Shown: positions 1,352-58,054, counted from the first letter of the stretch. The stretch is DNA of 64,000 bases from an uncultured Gammaproteobacteria bacterium (GCA_964431555.1 CAYSJW010000015.1:41573-105572), one strand, 5' to 3'. Made by a program: numbers and translations. Notes: generated by a model not told the origin, from the sequence alone.

Positions 1352-1372
1352 CAACACCGGGTGTTGATTAGC
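1352..1372 (+). repeat. REP-like element: 15-bp palindrome caacacc-g-ggtgttg followed by ATTAG
   Basis: Perfect 7-1-7 inverted repeat plus GATTAG(CTT) tail, read directly. Same architecture as the elements at 1462, 55168 and 57954. Confidence 0.5.
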
Positions 1373-1450
1373 TTCTAACAATGAGTATTTATGTCCCTTA
1401 GGTCTTTTTATTCTGGTTAAATTCTATTAAGGTGATTATCAATTACAGGT

Positions 1451-1500
1451 TTCAAAGGTTTCAACCCGTCGGGTTGATTAGGTTCAAACCCTTCGGATTT
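1451..1500 (+). repeat. 45-bp REP/MITE-like element, copy 1 (palindrome caacccg-t-cgggttg + ATTAG, flanked by ggtttcaacc / ggttcaaacc)
   Basis: Its reverse complement aligns over ~45 bp with 23313-23358, with about 4 mismatches. It sits in a 427-bp non-coding region. Confidence 0.6.
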
Positions 1501-3850: not shown

Positions 3851-5188
3851 TCATGAAACGGGAAATTTTAGGCAGAGAGTTTTTACTTCTTTGGCAATCC
3901 CCAACAAAAATTTATCTTTTGCAATTTTTTCTTTAAACATTTTCAAGAATTTACTTCTAGCTTCTGGATTTTTTGGAAGTTTATAGGGTTTGACATACTC
4001 AATGACTTCTGAAATCCACTGGGCAATTTTTATCATCTCCTTTTCTTTCATTCCCCGTGTTGTTACTGCTGGCGTGCCCAAACGAATGCCCGATGGATAA
4101 AAGGGAGGCATATCATCATTTGGCACTGAATTTCTGTTAACAATAATACCAGCAACCTCCAAAGCTTCAGCTACTATATTACCCGAAAGACCCACGGGTC
4201 TTAAATCAATCACCATTAAATGACACTCCGTTCCCCCCCCTACCAAAGTAAGTCCTTTCTTTTTAAGTTCATTCGACAAAACTAGTGCATTCTTGACAAT
4301 CTGCTTTCCGTATCTTTTAAAATCAGAGCTTATCGCTTCCTGAAGACAAACTGCAATCCCTGCGGTTGTATTGTTATGAGGACCTCCTTGCATTCCTGGA
4401 ATTATTGCTTTGTCTATTTTTGATGGAAGATCTGTATCCTTTTTAATTCCTCTTTCTGTTACCAAAATCATCGCCCCCCGAGGACCCCTAAGAGTTTTAT
4501 GAGTAGTCGTCGTCACAATGTGAGCGTAAGGAAAAGGACTTGGATAAACTTTAGCAATGATAAGTCCGACGATGTGGGAAATGTCAGTAACAAGCCAGGA
4601 ATTAATCCTATCTGCTATTTGTGCAAATTTTTTCCAATCAAAAGCCAAAGGATATGCAGTTGTTCCTATAAGCATAAGTCTTGGTTTTTCTTTTTCTGCA
4701 AGTTTTTCAATTTCCTTGTAATCCAAAAACCCATTTATATCAAGGCTAAACTGCACTGATCTAAAATATTTTCCGGAAAAAGTAATATCAGGATGTCCAT
4801 GAGTTAAATGCCCGCCCGCCGAAAGTTTCATACCCATTATCGTATCCCCAGGCTTGCAAAGAGCAAATAAAACCTCCGAATTAGCGGGAGAACCTGAATA
4901 AGGTTGGACATTCGCATAAGGTACTTTAAAAAGTTTTTTTGCTCTTTCAATTGCTAACGTTTCTACTTCGTCGATAATATTGTTGCCCTGATAATATCGT
5001 CGTCCGGGGTATCCCTCCGAGTATTTATTCATCAAAACCGATCCAACCGCAACCCTAACGGCTTTGGAGGCATAATTTTCAGAAGGAATCATCATCAAAG
5101 TTTCCCTCTGCCTTTCTTCTTCTTTTTTAATAAGCTCAAAAACTTTATCCACGTTAAATTTATTCGTTATAAAATCCCGATGTGCCAA
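3851..5188 (-). CDS. glyA: serine hydroxymethyltransferase GlyA
   Basis: LMMIPSENY, GYPGRRYY, HLTHGH and TTTTHKTLRGPRGAMIL are present. The start is called at a TTG codon, so it is uncertain. Confidence 0.9.
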   Translation of the reverse strand: MAHRDFITNKFNVDKVFELIKKEEERQRETLMMIPSENYASKAVRVAVGSVLMNKYSEGYPGRRYYQGNNIIDEVETLAIERAKKLFKVPYANVQPYSGSPANSEVLFALCKPGDTIMGMKLSAGGHLTHGHPDITFSGKYFRSVQFSLDINGFLDYKEIEKLAEKEKPRLMLIGTTAYPLAFDWKKFAQIADRINSWLVTDISHIVGLIIAKVYPSPFPYAHIVTTTTHKTLRGPRGAMILVTERGIKKDTDLPSKIDKAIIPGMQGGPHNNTTAGIAVCLQEAISSDFKRYGKQIVKNALVLSNELKKKGLTLVGGGTECHLMVIDLRPVGLSGNIVAEALEVAGIIVNRNSVPNDDMPPFYPSGIRLGTPAVTTRGMKEKEMIKIAQWISEVIEYVKPYKLPKNPEARSKFLKMFKEKIAKDKFLLGIAKEVKTLCLKFPVS

Positions 5189-5192
5189 GCTA

Positions 5193-5253
5193 AACCACTT
5201 CCGAAGTGTTTAAACCTTATGTGTCATTTCACACTTCCGAAGTGTGTCATTTC
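5193..5253. repeat. two tandem REP-like palindromes (cacttc-c-gaagtg), reverse orientation of the 55168-type core
   Basis: aaaccacttccgaagtgttt and cacacttccgaagtgtgtc lie 41 bp apart. The second lies inside the tmk 3' end and supplies its last codons and stop. Confidence 0.5.
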
Positions 5254-23312: not shown

Positions 23313-23358
23313 TTCCGAAAGGTTTGAACCTAATCAACCCGTCGGGTTTGAACCTAAA
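23313..23358 (-). repeat. 45-bp REP/MITE-like element, copy 2 (CTAATC + palindrome caacccgtcgggtt(t)g, flanked by ggtttgaacc direct repeats)
   Basis: Inverted homolog of 1451-1500, with about 4 mismatches over 45 bp. It lies in the intergenic region between tRNA-Trp and mntP. Confidence 0.6.
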
Positions 23359-27813: not shown

Positions 27814-27875
27814 GGTGGCAGTATATTCTACACCATTTGTAAAGATTTTAATAACACCAGTTTTTACAAACCTAA

Positions 27876-27907
27876 AAGGAGGTGTTAAAAAACACCTCCT
27901 TTTTTTT
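27876..27907. terminator. intrinsic terminator hairpin (11-bp perfect stem aaggaggtgtt/aacacctcctt, 4-nt loop) with T-tracts on both sides
   Basis: Read directly. On the + strand it is followed by six or more Ts, and on the - strand by TTTTAGG. It lies between the CpxP-like gene and the ArsR gene. Confidence 0.6.
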
Positions 27908-53343: not shown

Positions 53344-53529
53344 GTGAAGAATATAATCAATTACATAAGTTCTGTAAAGCTGGAGTTATCCAAGGTAATT
53401 TGGCCAAAAAGAAATGATGTTGTAAAATTAACCATCATTATATTTCTTATTTCCGGTATTGTAGCGTTATACCTGGGAATTCTAGATCTTTCATTTACAA
53501 AAATCTTTGAAGTTATATTAACAAGTTAA
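53344..53529 (+). CDS. secE: preprotein translocase subunit SecE
   Basis: 61 aa ending in a single TM segment (LSKVIWPKRNDVVKLTIIIFLISGIVALYLGILD), directly upstream of nusG. Confidence 0.8.
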   Translation: MKNIINYISSVKLELSKVIWPKRNDVVKLTIIIFLISGIVALYLGILDLSFTKIFEVILTS

Positions 53530-53535
53530 AATAAT

Positions 53536-54165
53536 ATGCCAAATGATGATCAAAACAATAAAGAAGAAATAGCCGTAAGAGAAAAAGGGACTGGCAATAA
53601 AAAAATACCCGGTCATATCGTAATCAACACCCAAGAGAACGATAAAGCATGCTGGTATGTTGTACACACCACATCCGGTCATGAAGTTAGGGTTGCCGAA
53701 ACTTTGCGACAAAGAGTTGAAACGATGGGTCTTACTGACAAAGTATTTGAACTTTTAGTTCCCACCCAAGACAGAGTAATCATAAGAAGCGGTAAAAAAG
53801 CAACCGTTAAGGAAAAGATTTTTCCGGGATACATGCTTATTAAAATGATCATGGATGACCCTACCTGGCTGGCTGTGAGAACAACTCCGGGTATAACAGG
53901 TTTTGTCGGAGCGGGAAAACAACCCACTCCCCTTTCGGAATTAGAGGTTCAAAATATTCAGAAATTCATTTCAACTCCCGCCAAAAGATTCAAAACTAGA
54001 TTCAGCAAAGGCGAAGCTGTTAAAATTACAGACGGACCATTTTCAGACTTTTTAGGAACAATCAATGAAATTGATGAAGAAAAGGGAAAGGTCAAGGTTT
54101 TGGTTTCAATTTTTGGAAGGGAAACTCCCGTTGAGCTTGATCTTCTCCAAATAGCCAAAGTTTAA
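53536..54165 (+). CDS. nusG: transcription termination/antitermination factor NusG
   Basis: NGN domain (WYVVHTTSGHE..V) and KOW domain (KGEAVKITDGPFSDFLGTINEID...). Confidence 0.9.
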   Translation: MPNDDQNNKEEIAVREKGTGNKKIPGHIVINTQENDKACWYVVHTTSGHEVRVAETLRQRVETMGLTDKVFELLVPTQDRVIIRSGKKATVKEKIFPGYMLIKMIMDDPTWLAVRTTPGITGFVGAGKQPTPLSELEVQNIQKFISTPAKRFKTRFSKGEAVKITDGPFSDFLGTINEIDEEKGKVKVLVSIFGRETPVELDLLQIAKV

Positions 54166-54222
54166 AACCATATAAAACGTCTTTGATATATAAATATAGG
54201 CAAAACTCTCGCTTACTCTAAG

Positions 54223-55164
54223 ATGGATGAAACAGGTGAAAACCCAAAAACCAACGAACCTCAAGAAAAATTAAGTAGAGATTACCAAAAATTCAAACAA
54301 CTTGTTGAAAGTTTTTTTACAAAAAATCCTGTTAAAAAGGAACCAGATTATGACTTATCTCCCCATCTTGAAAAATTAAGTGAGGAGGAAAATTCCTTAC
54401 TTCAAAGAATAGGACAAATGGACCCAAAAGAATTTCTTGAAATGTTTACCCAAGACCCCCCTTCGATAATGTTTAAAAATGATAAAGGAGAAATAACTCG
54501 ACTTAAGCCAAATTATATAATTACACCTCCCCCACCTTCTGATTTAGAACTTGCTCAAAGAAAAACCTTTATTCCTGAAAATCTCAACGAGGATGAAAAA
54601 ATCAATCTTGAATTAGCTTTATTAAATCTAGCAGCTTATCTAAAAACTCCAAAAGTTGAGGACGGTTTCGGAGAAAACCACGAAAATCAAAGAGTTCCTT
54701 ACAGAAATGGAATGAACATAATTTTTAAAATTATAGAAATAGTATGTTCTTCAAAATCAAATATTCTTAAGGCATACAACGACTTTTACACAAATAACTC
54801 ACTCACTACAAACAAACAAACGCTAGTTTATTCTTCTACAAACATACTTGTGACCCTCGCTTATCATAACAAAGAGCAATGGGCTAAAACGGTTTTAGAT
54901 GTATTAGAAATGGTAATAAATATTCAAGCTAACGAAAAGCAAATAAAAAATATAAAAGAACAAATAACTTTTCTTAATAAAATGCTTTCAACACTTAATC
55001 TTGATGAAACTACAATTAAAACACACCAAGAAAAAATAAAAGAATTAAGCGAAAAATTAAATGGTTTAGAAAAACCCCTATCAAATACAGAAAAAGAACC
55101 TATTTTCAGAGAGGCTGCAAGAAGAATATTACAAATCTTCACCTCTCCTGTCCTGACCAAGTAA
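54223..55164 (+). CDS. hypothetical protein (313 aa)
   Basis: No family recognised. It lies inside the insertion between nusG and rplK. Confidence 0.4.
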   Translation: MDETGENPKTNEPQEKLSRDYQKFKQLVESFFTKNPVKKEPDYDLSPHLEKLSEEENSLLQRIGQMDPKEFLEMFTQDPPSIMFKNDKGEITRLKPNYIITPPPPSDLELAQRKTFIPENLNEDEKINLELALLNLAAYLKTPKVEDGFGENHENQRVPYRNGMNIIFKIIEIVCSSKSNILKAYNDFYTNNSLTTNKQTLVYSSTNILVTLAYHNKEQWAKTVLDVLEMVINIQANEKQIKNIKEQITFLNKMLSTLNLDETTIKTHQEKIKELSEKLNGLEKPLSNTEKEPIFREAARRILQIFTSPVLTK

Positions 55165-55167
55165 CAA

Positions 55168-55187
55168 CCACTTCGGAAGTGGATTAG
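55168..55187 (+). repeat. REP-like element: palindrome ccacttc-g-gaagtgg + ATTAG(CTT), left flank of the RAYT gene
   Basis: Perfect 7-1-7 palindrome read directly. It begins 4 nt after the stop codon of the 313-aa ORF. Confidence 0.6.
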
Positions 55188-55204
55188 CTTGCCACATCGG
55201 GATA

Positions 55205-55873
55205 TTATTCCAAAACCAAGTGCTTGATTTTATCAAGTTTCCTCTGATAATCAGCATTATTTAAAACAAATTTTCGATAATCATTCTTATTTCTAAAAAA
55301 AGAAAGAATCAACTCTTTTTGACAAATACCATTAATGTCAAAAATATACTCAGAATAAGATGACCAAGAATATTTCTCAATTTCAGATAAGTTCTTAATC
55401 AAAAAAGAACTGAAAGGATTAAGATGTATATAGCGTGATAGATGAATCAATTGCTCGTCGTTCTCTACTCTCACTGCTTTAAATTGTCCCTGAAAAAGAG
55501 CCCCAATTCTATTTTCTTTCTCATTAATATACCTAGAATATCCTATTTGAAAATTACGGATGAATTTGGCTATTCCATCTTCTTCTTTCTGCTTTAAAAG
55601 AAGGTGAAAATGGTTAGGCATTAGACAAAAGCAAATAATATCAACAACTCTCTGCATTTTTTTTAAACTCTCTTCATAATTTTTTCTTATCTCACCCGCA
55701 GATTTAATAAATTTAGAATAACGGATCGGGGCATCACCAACTTGATAAAAACTCAAAAGATTAATAGCACGTCTATAATCTCTCTTATCAAAAAAGATAT
55801 TACTTAAATTTACTCCACGGTTAAAAATATGATAAACCTGACCATTAACAAAAGGTATCTTTCTGACTGGCAT
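55205..55873 (-). CDS. IS200-like Y1 (HuH) transposase, probable REP-associated tyrosine transposase (RAYT)
   Basis: YHIFNRG N-terminal block, HuH motif MPNHFHLLL, a Tyr-containing C-terminal block (IGYSRYIN, RYIHLNP), and a size of about 220 aa. Flanked by identical REP palindromes. Confidence 0.75.
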   Translation of the reverse strand: MPVRKIPFVNGQVYHIFNRGVNLSNIFFDKRDYRRAINLLSFYQVGDAPIRYSKFIKSAGEIRKNYEESLKKMQRVVDIICFCLMPNHFHLLLKQKEEDGIAKFIRNFQIGYSRYINEKENRIGALFQGQFKAVRVENDEQLIHLSRYIHLNPFSSFLIKNLSEIEKYSWSSYSEYIFDINGICQKELILSFFRNKNDYRKFVLNNADYQRKLDKIKHLVLE

Positions 55874-55940
55874 CTTAATTTATTACAGTTAACAATTTAC
55901 AATTTAATTTTAAACCAAAATACCGATCTGTCAAGCTGAA

Positions 55941-55960
55941 CCACTTCGGAAGTGGATTAA
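55941..55960 (+). repeat. REP-like element: palindrome ccacttc-g-gaagtgg + ATTAA, right flank of the RAYT gene
   Basis: Identical 15-bp palindrome to the one at 55168; the tail has one substitution. Confidence 0.6.
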
Positions 55961-55973
55961 AAGCTAACCTAAC

Positions 55974-57611
55974 TTATGTGGGATTCTTTTTAAAAACATT
56001 TTTCATCTCATTATAGCCGGGAACACTTAATGCCAAAACCCTGTTTCCAACTTTAAAAAGCGGAATATGACCAAACCAAGTCTGGCGATGCTCTCTTTCC
56101 CAAATAAGCCTATTTTTCAAAGAAGCATCAATCAAGGTATCGTTTAAAGTTGTTATATGATCCCATATACCCTCGTAGCAATTTTTCAAAGGTCCATCTA
56201 TAAATCTTTTCAGCAACTTATAAGCCTTTCTTGCCCTTTTTTGCTCCGGATTATTCGTCTTACCAAAACCCTCCCCCATATACTTTCCATCAAGATAAAA
56301 GTCCAAAGTAATATGTTCCCCTCCAGGCTTTAAAACCCTTGCGGATTCTTTTGCATAGCCTTCCACTATCTGAGGTCCATGCACTTTTCCTCCCATTGCC
56401 CCGACAACATAAGTGGAAAAAACTAAATCAAAACTTTCATCTGGAAAAGGCATCTTTGATGCATCAGCTTGAATCCAATTTATCTTTATACCAGCTTCTT
56501 CTAGTTTCCTTTTTACATCTGAAGGGAGACTTTCAAAATTCCTCTTTCCATTTTCAATCTGCTCTTTATTGTATTCAAGTACATCAATTTGTAAATTCCT
56601 TTTTCCTGAGTTTAAAAACTTCTCAGCAATCTTAAGAGAAGTCATAATCGGCCCATCCCCAACGGCCAATATTTTTGAACCACCGGAAATCTTCTCTGCA
56701 ATTTCAGCAGCAACTCCATCTCTTCCCACCGCGTCATTGGGATAATATTCCGTTTCTTTTGAATATTTTTCCTTAGAAATTAAAGCTAAGGGCAAACCAT
56801 CAATTTGCTTAAATTCCCCCTCCGAAAACTGAGGAATTGCTTGGGTATTCATCTGATGGAAAAAATCATAAACAGGCCCTATCACCTCGTAGAAATACTG
56901 CGAACCTGAAGATTTGTATTCAGGCTTTATCTCTCTGGAAAAAGCAAGCTTGGCAATTTCAAGCATCGCCTCGCTTTGATAATAAGGATAGTAAACACCC
57001 ATTCTTTCCATCAAACCTCCAACAAACTTTGATTTAGCCAAACTGGAAAGAGCACGAACTAAGGGATAATTTTTTTCCTCTGTGATTTTTTTCAGATGGG
57101 AAAAAAACTGATTATATTTAGGTCTTCCTAACTCATCTTTTACCACATTCCCTTTTTCGTCAATCTCATAGACAAACCATTCAGCGGCTTTTATTAAATC
57201 ATCAGGTTTCATCGGTTTCTGTCCCAAGAATTCTTTTGGAAAAACTATATCGGGTAAAGGAGCTTCTTTTTCCAAGTCCCCTTCTTTCCATTTGTAATTT
57301 CCCCTTTTTTTGACAACAACGCATTCTCTTCCCGCATAGACTTCAATCTGAATTACACCCCCGGAAGTTTCACCTAAACCAGCTTCCAGTTTACCTTCAT
57401 TAAGACTATCAGCCTCTTTACCATTAGATCTAATAGAATTGTCAGTATTTATTTCAACCAGCTCGTTTCCTTGTCTACCATTTACTTTTTCAGAAGAACC
57501 CTCTCTTACCAGCTTTTCACTTTCATTTCCCCCCTTAGCCACGTCGGGAATATTTTCAGGTTCTTCTGAAAAACCTTTTTCTATTTCATTACCTTCCATA
57601 TTTAAAATCAC
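55974..57611 (-). CDS. class I SAM-dependent methyltransferase domain protein with ~300-aa N-terminal extension of unknown function
   Basis: The C-terminal half carries ILAVGDGPI (a motif I variant), IDVLEYN (acidic loop), ADASKMPFPDESFDLVFS (motif II) and VLKPGGE (motif III). The N-terminal part is not recognised. Confidence 0.6.
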   Translation of the reverse strand: MILNMEGNEIEKGFSEEPENIPDVAKGGNESEKLVREGSSEKVNGRQGNELVEINTDNSIRSNGKEADSLNEGKLEAGLGETSGGVIQIEVYAGRECVVVKKRGNYKWKEGDLEKEAPLPDIVFPKEFLGQKPMKPDDLIKAAEWFVYEIDEKGNVVKDELGRPKYNQFFSHLKKITEEKNYPLVRALSSLAKSKFVGGLMERMGVYYPYYQSEAMLEIAKLAFSREIKPEYKSSGSQYFYEVIGPVYDFFHQMNTQAIPQFSEGEFKQIDGLPLALISKEKYSKETEYYPNDAVGRDGVAAEIAEKISGGSKILAVGDGPIMTSLKIAEKFLNSGKRNLQIDVLEYNKEQIENGKRNFESLPSDVKRKLEEAGIKINWIQADASKMPFPDESFDLVFSTYVVGAMGGKVHGPQIVEGYAKESARVLKPGGEHITLDFYLDGKYMGEGFGKTNNPEQKRARKAYKLLKRFIDGPLKNCYEGIWDHITTLNDTLIDASLKNRLIWEREHRQTWFGHIPLFKVGNRVLALSVPGYNEMKNVFKKNPT

Positions 57612-57934
57612 TAAGTTTTTTTATCAAGCTTGTCTAAAATAAAATTATATCTCCGAATCTCCAAAATTAAAGAAGCTTTCTCAAAATCATCTTTCATCTC
57701 TTCCTCCAAACTCCATCCCCCTCCCCTTTTTTGCCAGATGCCGTAAGCAACTTTCTTTATCCTTTCATCCATTTCCAAACCAAAAATACTTCCACCCCCC
57801 AAAATCCTATTTTCTAAAAATTGCAAAGTATCTGGGTCAACAGAATTTCTTAATCTTCCTTTTCTTTCCTCTAAAATTTCTCTTAACCTTTCTTTACCTA
57901 TCAATGATATTACCCCCTCTTTACATATTAACAT
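57611..57934 (-). CDS. hypothetical protein (107 aa)
   Basis: ORF only; no family recognised. Confidence 0.35.
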   Translation of the reverse strand: MLICKEGVISLIGKERLREILEERKGRLRNSVDPDTLQFLENRILGGGSIFGLEMDERIKKVAYGIWQKRGGGWSLEEEMKDDFEKASLILEIRRYNFILDKLDKKT

Positions 57935-57953
57935 GAATCTAATAAAATAAGCT

Positions 57954-57983
57954 CACCTCGTTTTAAAAGGCGAGGGAGATTAG
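57954..57983 (+). repeat. REP-like variant hairpin (cacCTCG-10 nt loop-CGAGg) followed by GATTAG(CC)
   Basis: The hairpin-plus-GATTAG tail matches the architecture of the other elements. It lies 70 bp upstream of rplK. Confidence 0.4.
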
Positions 57984-58054
57984 CCAAAGAAAGCTGGTCG
58001 GATAATATCCTCCTGACAAAAATCTTGGCTTACTAAACAAATTCAAAACTTTTT

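Follow-up and report, generated by a model that had tools for sequence, protein, structure and literature searches.

Five groups of REP-associated tyrosine transposases (RAYTs; REP, repetitive extragenic palindrome) are already known, as are the loci named REPtrons and TIRtrons (PMC3733652, PMC5581495, PMC6006769). Most characterised RAYT/REP systems come from proteobacteria and cyanobacteria, and a link between such systems and larger genomes has been reported (PMC6006769). The best match in structure to the protein described below, Protein Data Bank (PDB) entry 4er8, is a RAYT, the TnpA_REP of Escherichia coli, bound to a REP hairpin. The REPIN-RAYT systems of Pseudomonas belong to subclasses 2.2 and 2.5 of the TnpAY1 enzymes, that is, to Bertels groups 2 and 3. 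Subclass 2.1 (PMC6006769) corresponds to Bertels group 1 and is probably equivalent to Di Nocera's TIRYT. Here we analyse a stretch of 64,000 nucleotides (CAYSJW010000015.1:41573-105572, assembly GCA_964431555.1), called the window throughout, which holds a gene for a RAYT-like Y1 HUH endonuclease flanked by palindromes. The locus is likely to be of the REPtron/TIRtron type and to belong to Patescibacteria (Microgenomates): a vertically inherited, single-copy class-2 Y1 HUH endonuclease accompanied by its cognate palindromic repeat, in a host genome of about 1 Mb. Single copy means one copy in the 64-kb window, and vertical inheritance refers to the place of the gene in relatives of 80% and 71% identity. 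Novelty lies in the host range, in the nested-palindrome unit and in its link to strain-level cassettes, whereas protein family, architecture and likely mechanism are of a known kind. The literature searched contained nothing relevant on REP or RAYT in the candidate phyla radiation/Patescibacteria, and Quentin 2018 (PMC6006769), the one study checked for Patescibacteria terms, contains none.

The enzyme and its flanking repeat

A previous inspection of the DNA, hereafter the sequence-only reading, had reported a 222-aa open reading frame (ORF) with the HuH and Tyr blocks of Y1 transposases. This was borne out by profile, motifs and predicted fold. The ORF matches Pfam Y1_Tnp (PF01797) with 40.2 bits, for a gathering cutoff of 23 (E = 4.4e-10). 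Its two blocks are PNHFHLL, with H88 and H90, and RYIHLNP, with Y148; in an alignment of 33 homologs of 50 to 80% identity, PNHFH and RYIHLNP are invariant. A profile made from this alignment matches the ISDra2 TnpA (E = 0.003) and the E. coli TnpA_REP of 4er8 (E = 0.012). The AlphaFold2 (AF2) model of the protein has a predicted local distance difference test (pLDDT) score of 90.2 and places Y148 within a helix (residues 139-155). Its top Foldseek match in the PDB is 4er8_A (E = 4e-7, template modelling score 0.64, target-normalized), followed by 2vjv, 2a6o and 2xm3, which are IS608 and ISDra2 transposases. The window holds one copy of this gene.

The Tyr motif, YIHLNP, is of the class-2 Y---NP type and not of the Y---Q type of IS200, following the definition given in PMC6006769. 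By-eye comparison with the first table of the same study indicates that the motif set NHFH, FQGQFK, YIHLNP and WSS fits TnpAY1 subclass 2.1 and is unlike the E. coli or Pseudomonas RAYT subclasses. Judged by its sequence, the protein is a class-2 (RAYT-like) TnpAY1 with motifs fitting subclass 2.1, or Bertels group 1. Among cultured bacteria, it comes closest to 'transposases' encoded on plasmids of R. rubrum and P. aeruginosa (26 to 29% identity), which share with it an N-terminal MPxR...H..RG block and possess the other subclass-2.1 motif set, together with a long C-terminal tail. The family of the window protein lacks that tail and has a 28-aa insertion at residues ~43-70. The C-terminal helix-turn-helix (HTH)-like domain expected of subclass 2.1 (Bac_DnaA_C, HTH_23, HTH_28) was not found by Pfam.

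On each side of the gene, in a window of 34% G+C, stands the perfect 7-1-7 palindrome CCACTTCgGAAGTGG. As the sequence-only reading had it, the two copies are identical and direct: CCACTTCGGAAGTGG occurs exactly at 55168-55182, where ATTAG follows, and at 55941-55955, where ATTAA follows, and the orientation is given by the identical central base. A further likeness, absent from that reading, runs 18 to 21 nt inward of each palindrome (55183-55203 and 55923-55940). These inward arms are mutually inverted (14 matches out of 18 between 55923-55940 and 55183-55200, read from the sequence), and 28 of 33 positions are shared by 55168-55200 and 55923-55955 when the latter is reverse-complemented, so that bracketing of the TIRtron type is present. 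A description of the flanks as simply inverted was dropped, the 15-nt palindromes and the AAT-side linkers being direct and only the gene-proximal arms inverted.

The complete unit, as found in relatives, spans about 51 nt and forms a nested near-palindrome, CCGATGTGGC-AAGCTAAT-CCACTTCcGAAGTGG-TCTAGCTTG-aCAgATCGG, in which the core hairpin is CCACTTC-c-GAAGTGG and the outer arms repeat the hairpin arm and loop. As single-stranded DNA (ssDNA), full units fold into a single long hairpin (-22.5 kcal/mol, z = -8.4 in L084; -14.5 kcal/mol, z = -4.5 in L154; L numbers designate loci of related genomes). The window keeps just the gene-proximal halves of the unit, one per side, which leaves 33-nt inverted repeats around the gene, with the palindrome as their outer 15 nt. 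In a longer reading on the gene strand, the downstream flank is CCGATGTGGCAAGCTAAT-CCACTTCcGAAGTGG-TTGTTAC; the downstream half-unit scored as terminator-like for that strand. L087 and L088, with a protein of 71% identity, have CCACATCgGATGTGG as their hairpin, and there the arms equal the hairpin arms; the stem of L087 contains a compensatory change from T:A to A:T (CCACATC/GATGTGG).

This structure accounts differently for the GATTAG that the sequence-only reading had taken for a guide-like tail. ATTAG/GATTAG does not stand free: reverse-complemented, it is the linker AAGCTAAT of the ~51-nt nested palindrome. GATTAG was rejected as a family-wide guide, most related genomes being without the tail. 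The tag beside the hairpin is AAGCTAAT or CCTAGA here and TAGCTT in other genomes, and the classical 5' GT[AG]G is not present; a TAGCTT or CTAAT tag adjoining the hairpin recurs in several genomes, GATTAG does not.

The upstream unit also overlaps a predicted promoter, the -35 hexamer of which falls inside the arm of the unit; the transcript predicted from it, beginning just after TAAAAT (55907), would be near-leaderless. Within the Microgenomates subfamily, about 40 nt separate the end of the upstream hairpin from the ATG, and TA(GC)TTGACACCnnnGG comes after the hairpin; the order hairpin, TTGACA, N15-19, TAnnnT, ATG was encountered in 19 of 37 related loci.

The family in Patescibacteria and the described systems

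More than 5,800 protein clusters match the RAYT-like family, and species-representative genomes contain at least 583 confirmed matching stretches, out of which 80 loci were examined. Almost all 80 are from Patescibacteria, chiefly Microgenomates (Levy-, Davies-, Woese-, Beckwith- and Gottesmanbacteria). The sequence-only reading had called a RAYT/REP system unusual in such a reduced, AT-rich genome; the system is no oddity of this genome, the family being very widespread in Patescibacteria. Plasmid-borne relatives are just 23 to 28% identical, and phage-borne ones are essentially lacking.

The association with hairpins was assessed at the 70 loci for which both flanks were available, counting only perfect, GC-containing hairpins that have identical arms and stand, on both flanks, at most 250 nt from the gene. 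The same hairpin was present on both flanks at 42 of the 70 loci, compared to 1 of 1,138 random positions of the same loci. The stems are lineage-specific, with 43 sequences among 46 loci, every one self-complementary. Taken with the compensatory change in L087, these comparisons indicate that the hairpin repeats co-evolve with the enzyme across lineages. Away from the gene, hairpin copies are few (0 to 6 per 20 kb; L041 has eight), and L084 has four units in 5.4 kb. One metagenome-assembled genome (MAG) contains two paralogs (L076 and L079) with different hairpins.

At seven loci of 35 to 40% identity (L051, L056, L058, L062, L067, L073 and L078), the flanking hairpin is also found in frame within the gene, the ORF remaining open (for example L056:1911 and 2206; L078:10162 and 10429). 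Two places recur, one ahead of the HUH strand at about residues 60-70 and the other right after RYIHxNP. Since the first of these coincides with the 28-aa insertion, the insertion in the family of the window protein might derive from such an event. Rickettsia palindromic elements likewise occur in ORFs. REP insertions inside tnpA_REP genes are known from subclass 2.4 (PMC6006769). The distant Patescibacteria relatives resemble both in carrying a hairpin in frame inside the gene, and differ from them in the use of two fixed places; the window's own gene is without any.

Many of the genome records that carry the Patescibacteria-type gene, among them L004, L005, L011 and others of the CAY*/CAZ* series (binchicken MAGs), are titled 'uncultured Gammaproteobacteria bacterium'. 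These titles are probably placeholder labels, because gene content and hairpins resemble those of Microgenomates.

With E. coli TnpA_REP (4er8) and the Pseudomonas REPIN-RAYT systems, the locus shares the Y1 HUH fold and the Y---NP motif, a single-copy gene flanked by cognate hairpins with further extragenic 3' copies, the covariation of hairpin and protein by lineage, and vertical inheritance over short evolutionary distances. It differs from them in several respects. The window protein is only about 15% identical to TnpA_REP in a structural alignment and stays under the NCBIfam equivalog cutoff; it is 222 aa long, with the 28-aa insertion and another C-terminal extension. CTAAT/CTAGA (TAGCTT) stands in place of the GT[AG]G tag, and the nested ~51-nt palindrome in place of an imperfect REP or a spacer-linked REP doublet. 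There are a handful of copies in 64 kb of a ~1-Mb genome, against hundreds per genome for classical REPs. Of the proteobacterial REP-RAYT architecture proposed by the sequence-only reading, the cognate hairpins on both sides of the gene can be retained, and the Y---NP motif and the likeness to 4er8 support a RAYT-like class; the motifs are not those of the proteobacterial RayT groups, and the copies are few.

The motifs NH[YF]H, FQ, Y[IV]HLNP and the SS tail bring the protein closer to subclass 2.1, Bertels group 1 and TIRYT (PMC3733652, PMC6006769), as does its length class (222 aa compared to a median of 238). As in TIRtrons, the gene is bracketed by inverted repeats, some of them self-complementary, whose families are only moderately abundant. 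Unlike the subclass 2.1 genes of PMC6006769, for which no REP-like structures were found nearby, the gene has clear and conserved hairpins on its flanks in most loci. The window protein also lacks the long, HTH-like C-terminal tail seen in proteobacterial members of subclass 2.1, and the GGGGWSAS motif of the TIRtron terminal inverted repeats is absent.

Dispersed units, strain variation and competing explanations

The repeats of the window are not confined to the flanks of the gene. Allowing up to 3 mismatches, the palindrome has 8 matches in the window, for 0.49 expected. GC-containing perfect k-1-k palindromes are enriched 3- to 6-fold over shuffles (12 compared to 3.9 ± 1.8 for k ≥ 6, and 8 compared to 1.4 for k ≥ 7), and those with an ATTAG tail number 4, compared to 0.03 in 100 dinucleotide shuffles. 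The excess of palindrome plus ATTAG over shuffled sequence, on which the sequence-only reading depended, thus holds within the 64 kb. Seven modules of three stem subfamilies share the tag. The five tag-plus-hairpin modules beyond the flanking pair are all extragenic and mostly lie between convergent 3' ends, as would be anticipated of REPs by the same reading.

Among the further sites which that reading had listed, 1352 and 1462 are perfect 7-1-7 palindromes followed by ATTAG, 23335 has a 6-bp stem with the tail on the opposite strand, and 5193 is an imperfect copy with TTTAG on the opposite strand. The site at 5234 is a hairpin of the same family but has no tail; with its neighbour it forms a doublet that folds at -9.5 kcal/mol (z = -2.7). 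The site at 57954 had to be removed from the list: it is a bulged hairpin of 5+3 bp with a 10-nt loop, which was also rejected as a decayed unit because it cannot be aligned to the units, and it is probably unrelated to them.

The window matches a contig of 149,488 bp in JGI metagenome 3300022548 (Ga0212092_1000030). In it, the RAYT-like gene sits between secE-nusG (53344-54165) and rplK (58055), in the company of three others: an ORF of 313 aa that matches no Pfam family, a gene for a protein of 545 aa that ends in a methyltransferase domain, and an ORF of 107 aa. The placement between nusG and rplK is kept in the closest relatives, whose RAYT-like proteins are 80% and 71% identical. It is absent from all 80 distant loci, and is therefore uninformative on deep inheritance. 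Only four proteins homologous to the cargo methyltransferase exist in the collection; each is encoded in an unrelated operon, and no units accompany them.

A series of strains, in which the NusG and L11 proteins are 98 to 100% identical to one another, was compared at this place. A scan of the metagenome collection for CACTTCSGAAGTGGWTTA recovered related strains, the window's own sample being outside the collection. L154 has nusG, one unit and rplK, with no gene between. In L084 the order is rplK, unit, genes of 293 and 78 aa, unit, RAYT gene, unit, a 202-aa gene, unit, nusG, all four units being in direct orientation; L086 has this layout and an extra 105-aa gene. In L112 other genes, including one for a radical-SAM/SPASM protein, lie between two units, and L125 has no RAYT gene and keeps a truncated unit. 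The single unit of L154 is chimeric: it joins the two outermost units of L084, and the crossover falls within the outer arm. Because these strains differ by unit-bounded gene blocks, the units are taken to be junctions of recent gene gain and loss between near-identical strains.

The nusG-rplK junction (window 54166-58054; L084, L086, L112, L125, L154 and L166), which is normally tight, is hypervariable in this lineage, its content ranging from empty (L154) to 3 to 4 kb of poorly conserved genes, mostly without a Pfam family.

By homology to TnpA_REP and the IS608 TnpA, the protein would bind the hairpin extruded on ssDNA, and would cleave and rejoin DNA beside it, which would let the repeats spread and be maintained. 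The conserved linker at the foot of the hairpin (CTAAT/CTAGA; TAGCTT elsewhere) would take the role of the classical GTAG, and the promoter embedded in the upstream unit may permit autoregulation. The enzyme might do more than this: by cutting and rejoining ssDNA at the units it could let foreign gene blocks with units enter and leave the space between nusG and rplK, a cassette exchange that could be likened to an integron with HUH chemistry in genomes with few known mobile elements. The series of empty (L154), occupied (L084, L086, L112) and occupied but RAYT-less (L125) strains is compatible with such an exchange, as is the rare methyltransferase gene that the window carries there. RecA recombination between the repeated units explains the same series, and the junctions are not uniform, so that we regard cassette exchange as unlikely.

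Several observations weigh against a REPtron/TIRtron-type locus. NCBIfam NF047646 (REP_Tyr_transpos) gives the protein 51.8 bits, under the equivalog cutoff of 80, so that of the profile checks attached to the sequence-only reading only the one with Y1_Tnp came out positive; relatives score 37 to 77 bits. No REP-like structures were reported next to subclass 2.1 genes (PMC6006769). In three relatives, each sampled over 13 kb, there were zero such units, and the copy number in the window (7 modules in 64 kb) is far under that of classical REP populations. The half-units of the window fold as ssDNA no better than shuffles. Finally, the unit boundaries beside the cargo genes vary in position; such non-uniform junctions fit recombination and decay as well as enzyme-catalysed events.

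The few dispersed copies and the variable junction positions would also suit a domesticated enzyme with another ssDNA task, the palindromes being just cis-regulatory (promoter/operator and terminator) and the other copies having arisen by ordinary duplication or recombination. The -35 box, which lies within the upstream unit and is conserved in its spacing to the ATG, and the terminator-like downstream hairpin point the same way. However, the unit recurs at unrelated extragenic sites, in three stem subfamilies with a common tag, and several different cargo blocks are punctuated by units. Distant relatives also have the flanking hairpin in frame at two recurrent places within the gene, which is hard to explain without an insertion mechanism. 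We consider this explanation improbable. An autonomous insertion sequence (IS) of the IS200 type, with the hairpins as its left and right ends and the whole block moving by peel-and-paste, is a still weaker candidate and very unlikely. It would account for hairpins on both sides of the gene, for the differing presence among near-identical strains (L125 and L154 being without the gene), for the different genomic positions in distant genomes and for the two paralogs in one MAG. The HUH/Tyr core is common to the IS200/IS605 enzymes (IS608, ISDra2), and recognition of ssDNA hairpins is expected of both. Yet the Tyr motif is the wrong one (Y---NP and not Y---Q, PMC6006769, Table 1), the protein is longer and has no match to NCBIfam transpos_IS200 in a profile search, and there is no tnpB. 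Nor is the gene found in identical multiple copies: one occurs in 64 kb, and each 90% protein cluster is on at most 14 contigs, mostly one. The gene stays at its place even in relatives of just 71% identity, gene-less sites keep a unit where a clean empty site would be expected, and solo units exist without the gene. The hairpins on the two sides are identical whereas the ends of IS200/IS605 elements differ, and those of the L076 and L079 paralogs are different from each other. As for chance, that is, short GC-rich palindromes in an AT-rich genome beside an unrelated ORF, ATTAG is a frequent pentamer at 34% G+C and the supposed member at 57954 is probably such a coincidence; the shuffle tests, the control of 1 in 1,138 and the conservation of the architecture across genomes already refute it, and we give it practically no credit.

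A REPtron/TIRtron-type locus thus remains the preferred explanation. In Patescibacteria, a very large and well-conserved clade of the enzyme is accompanied by co-evolving hairpin repeats in genomes of ~1 Mb, which extends the REPtron idea to subclass-2.1-like enzymes, earlier thought to be REP-less. The natural series of enzyme-hairpin pairs is compact and could be useful for studying hairpin recognition. The locus also points to the units as the joints at which strains gain and lose genes, in a group whose mobile elements are poorly known.

Features of the window and other repeats

The features discussed above are collected in Table 1.

Table 1. Positions of the RAYT-like gene, its predicted promoter and the repeat modules in the 64-kb window
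Feature	Position	Strand	Sequence	Remarks
RAYT-like Y1 HUH endonuclease gene	55205..55873	-		222 aa; H88/H90 and catalytic Y148; from profile, motifs and AF2
Downstream flanking half-unit	55168..55203	-	ATCCCGATGTGGC-AAGCTAAT-CCACTTCcGAAGTGG (gene strand)	homologous to full L084/L154 units
Palindrome of downstream half-unit	55168-55182	-		
Arm and linker of downstream half-unit	55183-55203	-		
Sigma-70-like promoter	55907..55934	-	TTGACA-16 nt-TAAAAT	consensus match at 11/12 positions; putative function
Upstream flanking half-unit	55923..55966	-	AGCTTTTAAT-CCACTTCcGAAGTGG-TTCAGCTTGACAGATCGG (gene strand)	
Arm of upstream half-unit	55923-55940	-		
Palindrome of upstream half-unit	55941-55955	-		
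Decayed distal linker of upstream half-unit	55956-55966	-		
Second stem subfamily (CAACACC)	1352..1379	-	GTTAGAAGCTAAT-CAACACCcGGTGTTG (minus strand)	between convergent genes
Third stem subfamily (CAACCCG)	1461..1496	-	CCGAAGGGTTTGAACCTAAT-CAACCCGaCGGGTTG (minus strand)	
Same-stem dispersed unit	5174..5209	+	ATCCCGATGTGCC-AAGCTAAA-CCACTTCcGAAGTGT	between tmk and glyA
Second hairpin of doublet	5230..5246	.	CACACTTCcGAAGTGTG	overlaps last tmk codons
Third stem subfamily (CAACCCG), copy two	23315..23349	+	CCGAAAGGTTTGAACCTAAT-CAACCCGtCGGGTT	between tRNA-Trp and MntP-family gene

The second hairpin of the doublet encodes the last codons of tmk (region 5224-5246). The Tmk of the window is 218-219 aa long, compared to 212-214 aa in relatives of 80 to 83% identity, and the extra length is C-terminal; longer protein and hairpin-encoded end together suggest that insertion of a repeat reshaped the C-terminus. 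A comparison of occupied and empty sites for the solo unit, anchored on tmk, was precluded by broken synteny in the relatives, which are ~81% identical. Just 3' of tmk, these keep an AT-rich palindrome with a stem of 15 to 17 bp, TTTTACTACAAATACATCGATGTATTTGTAGTAAAA (L168:3008-3043, L169:10771-10806 and L170:3804-3835). This 17-2-17 palindrome is unrelated to the units.

The hairpin rejected at 57954 covers 57951-57985, about 70 nt upstream of rplK, and reads CTCACCTCG-N10-CGAGGGAG followed by ATTAGCC. It aligns neither with the units nor with rplK leader sequences from relatives, and has no match in Rfam; a scan of the window with Rfam returned four tRNAs and nothing else. A strong terminator-like hairpin at 27874-27903, AAAAGGAGGTGTT-N4-AACACCTCCTTTT, is followed by a T-run and is unrelated to the units, though AACCTAAA happens to stand before it. 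Finally, a direct repeat of ~300 nt (61130-61435 and 62980-63284, 92 to 97% identity, 1,850 nt apart) covers the beginnings (5' ends) of two neighbouring genes on the minus strand (59417-61249 and 61993-63099) together with the DNA upstream of them, and both of its copies hold the 9-1-9 palindrome ATTTCCAACAGTTGGAAAT.

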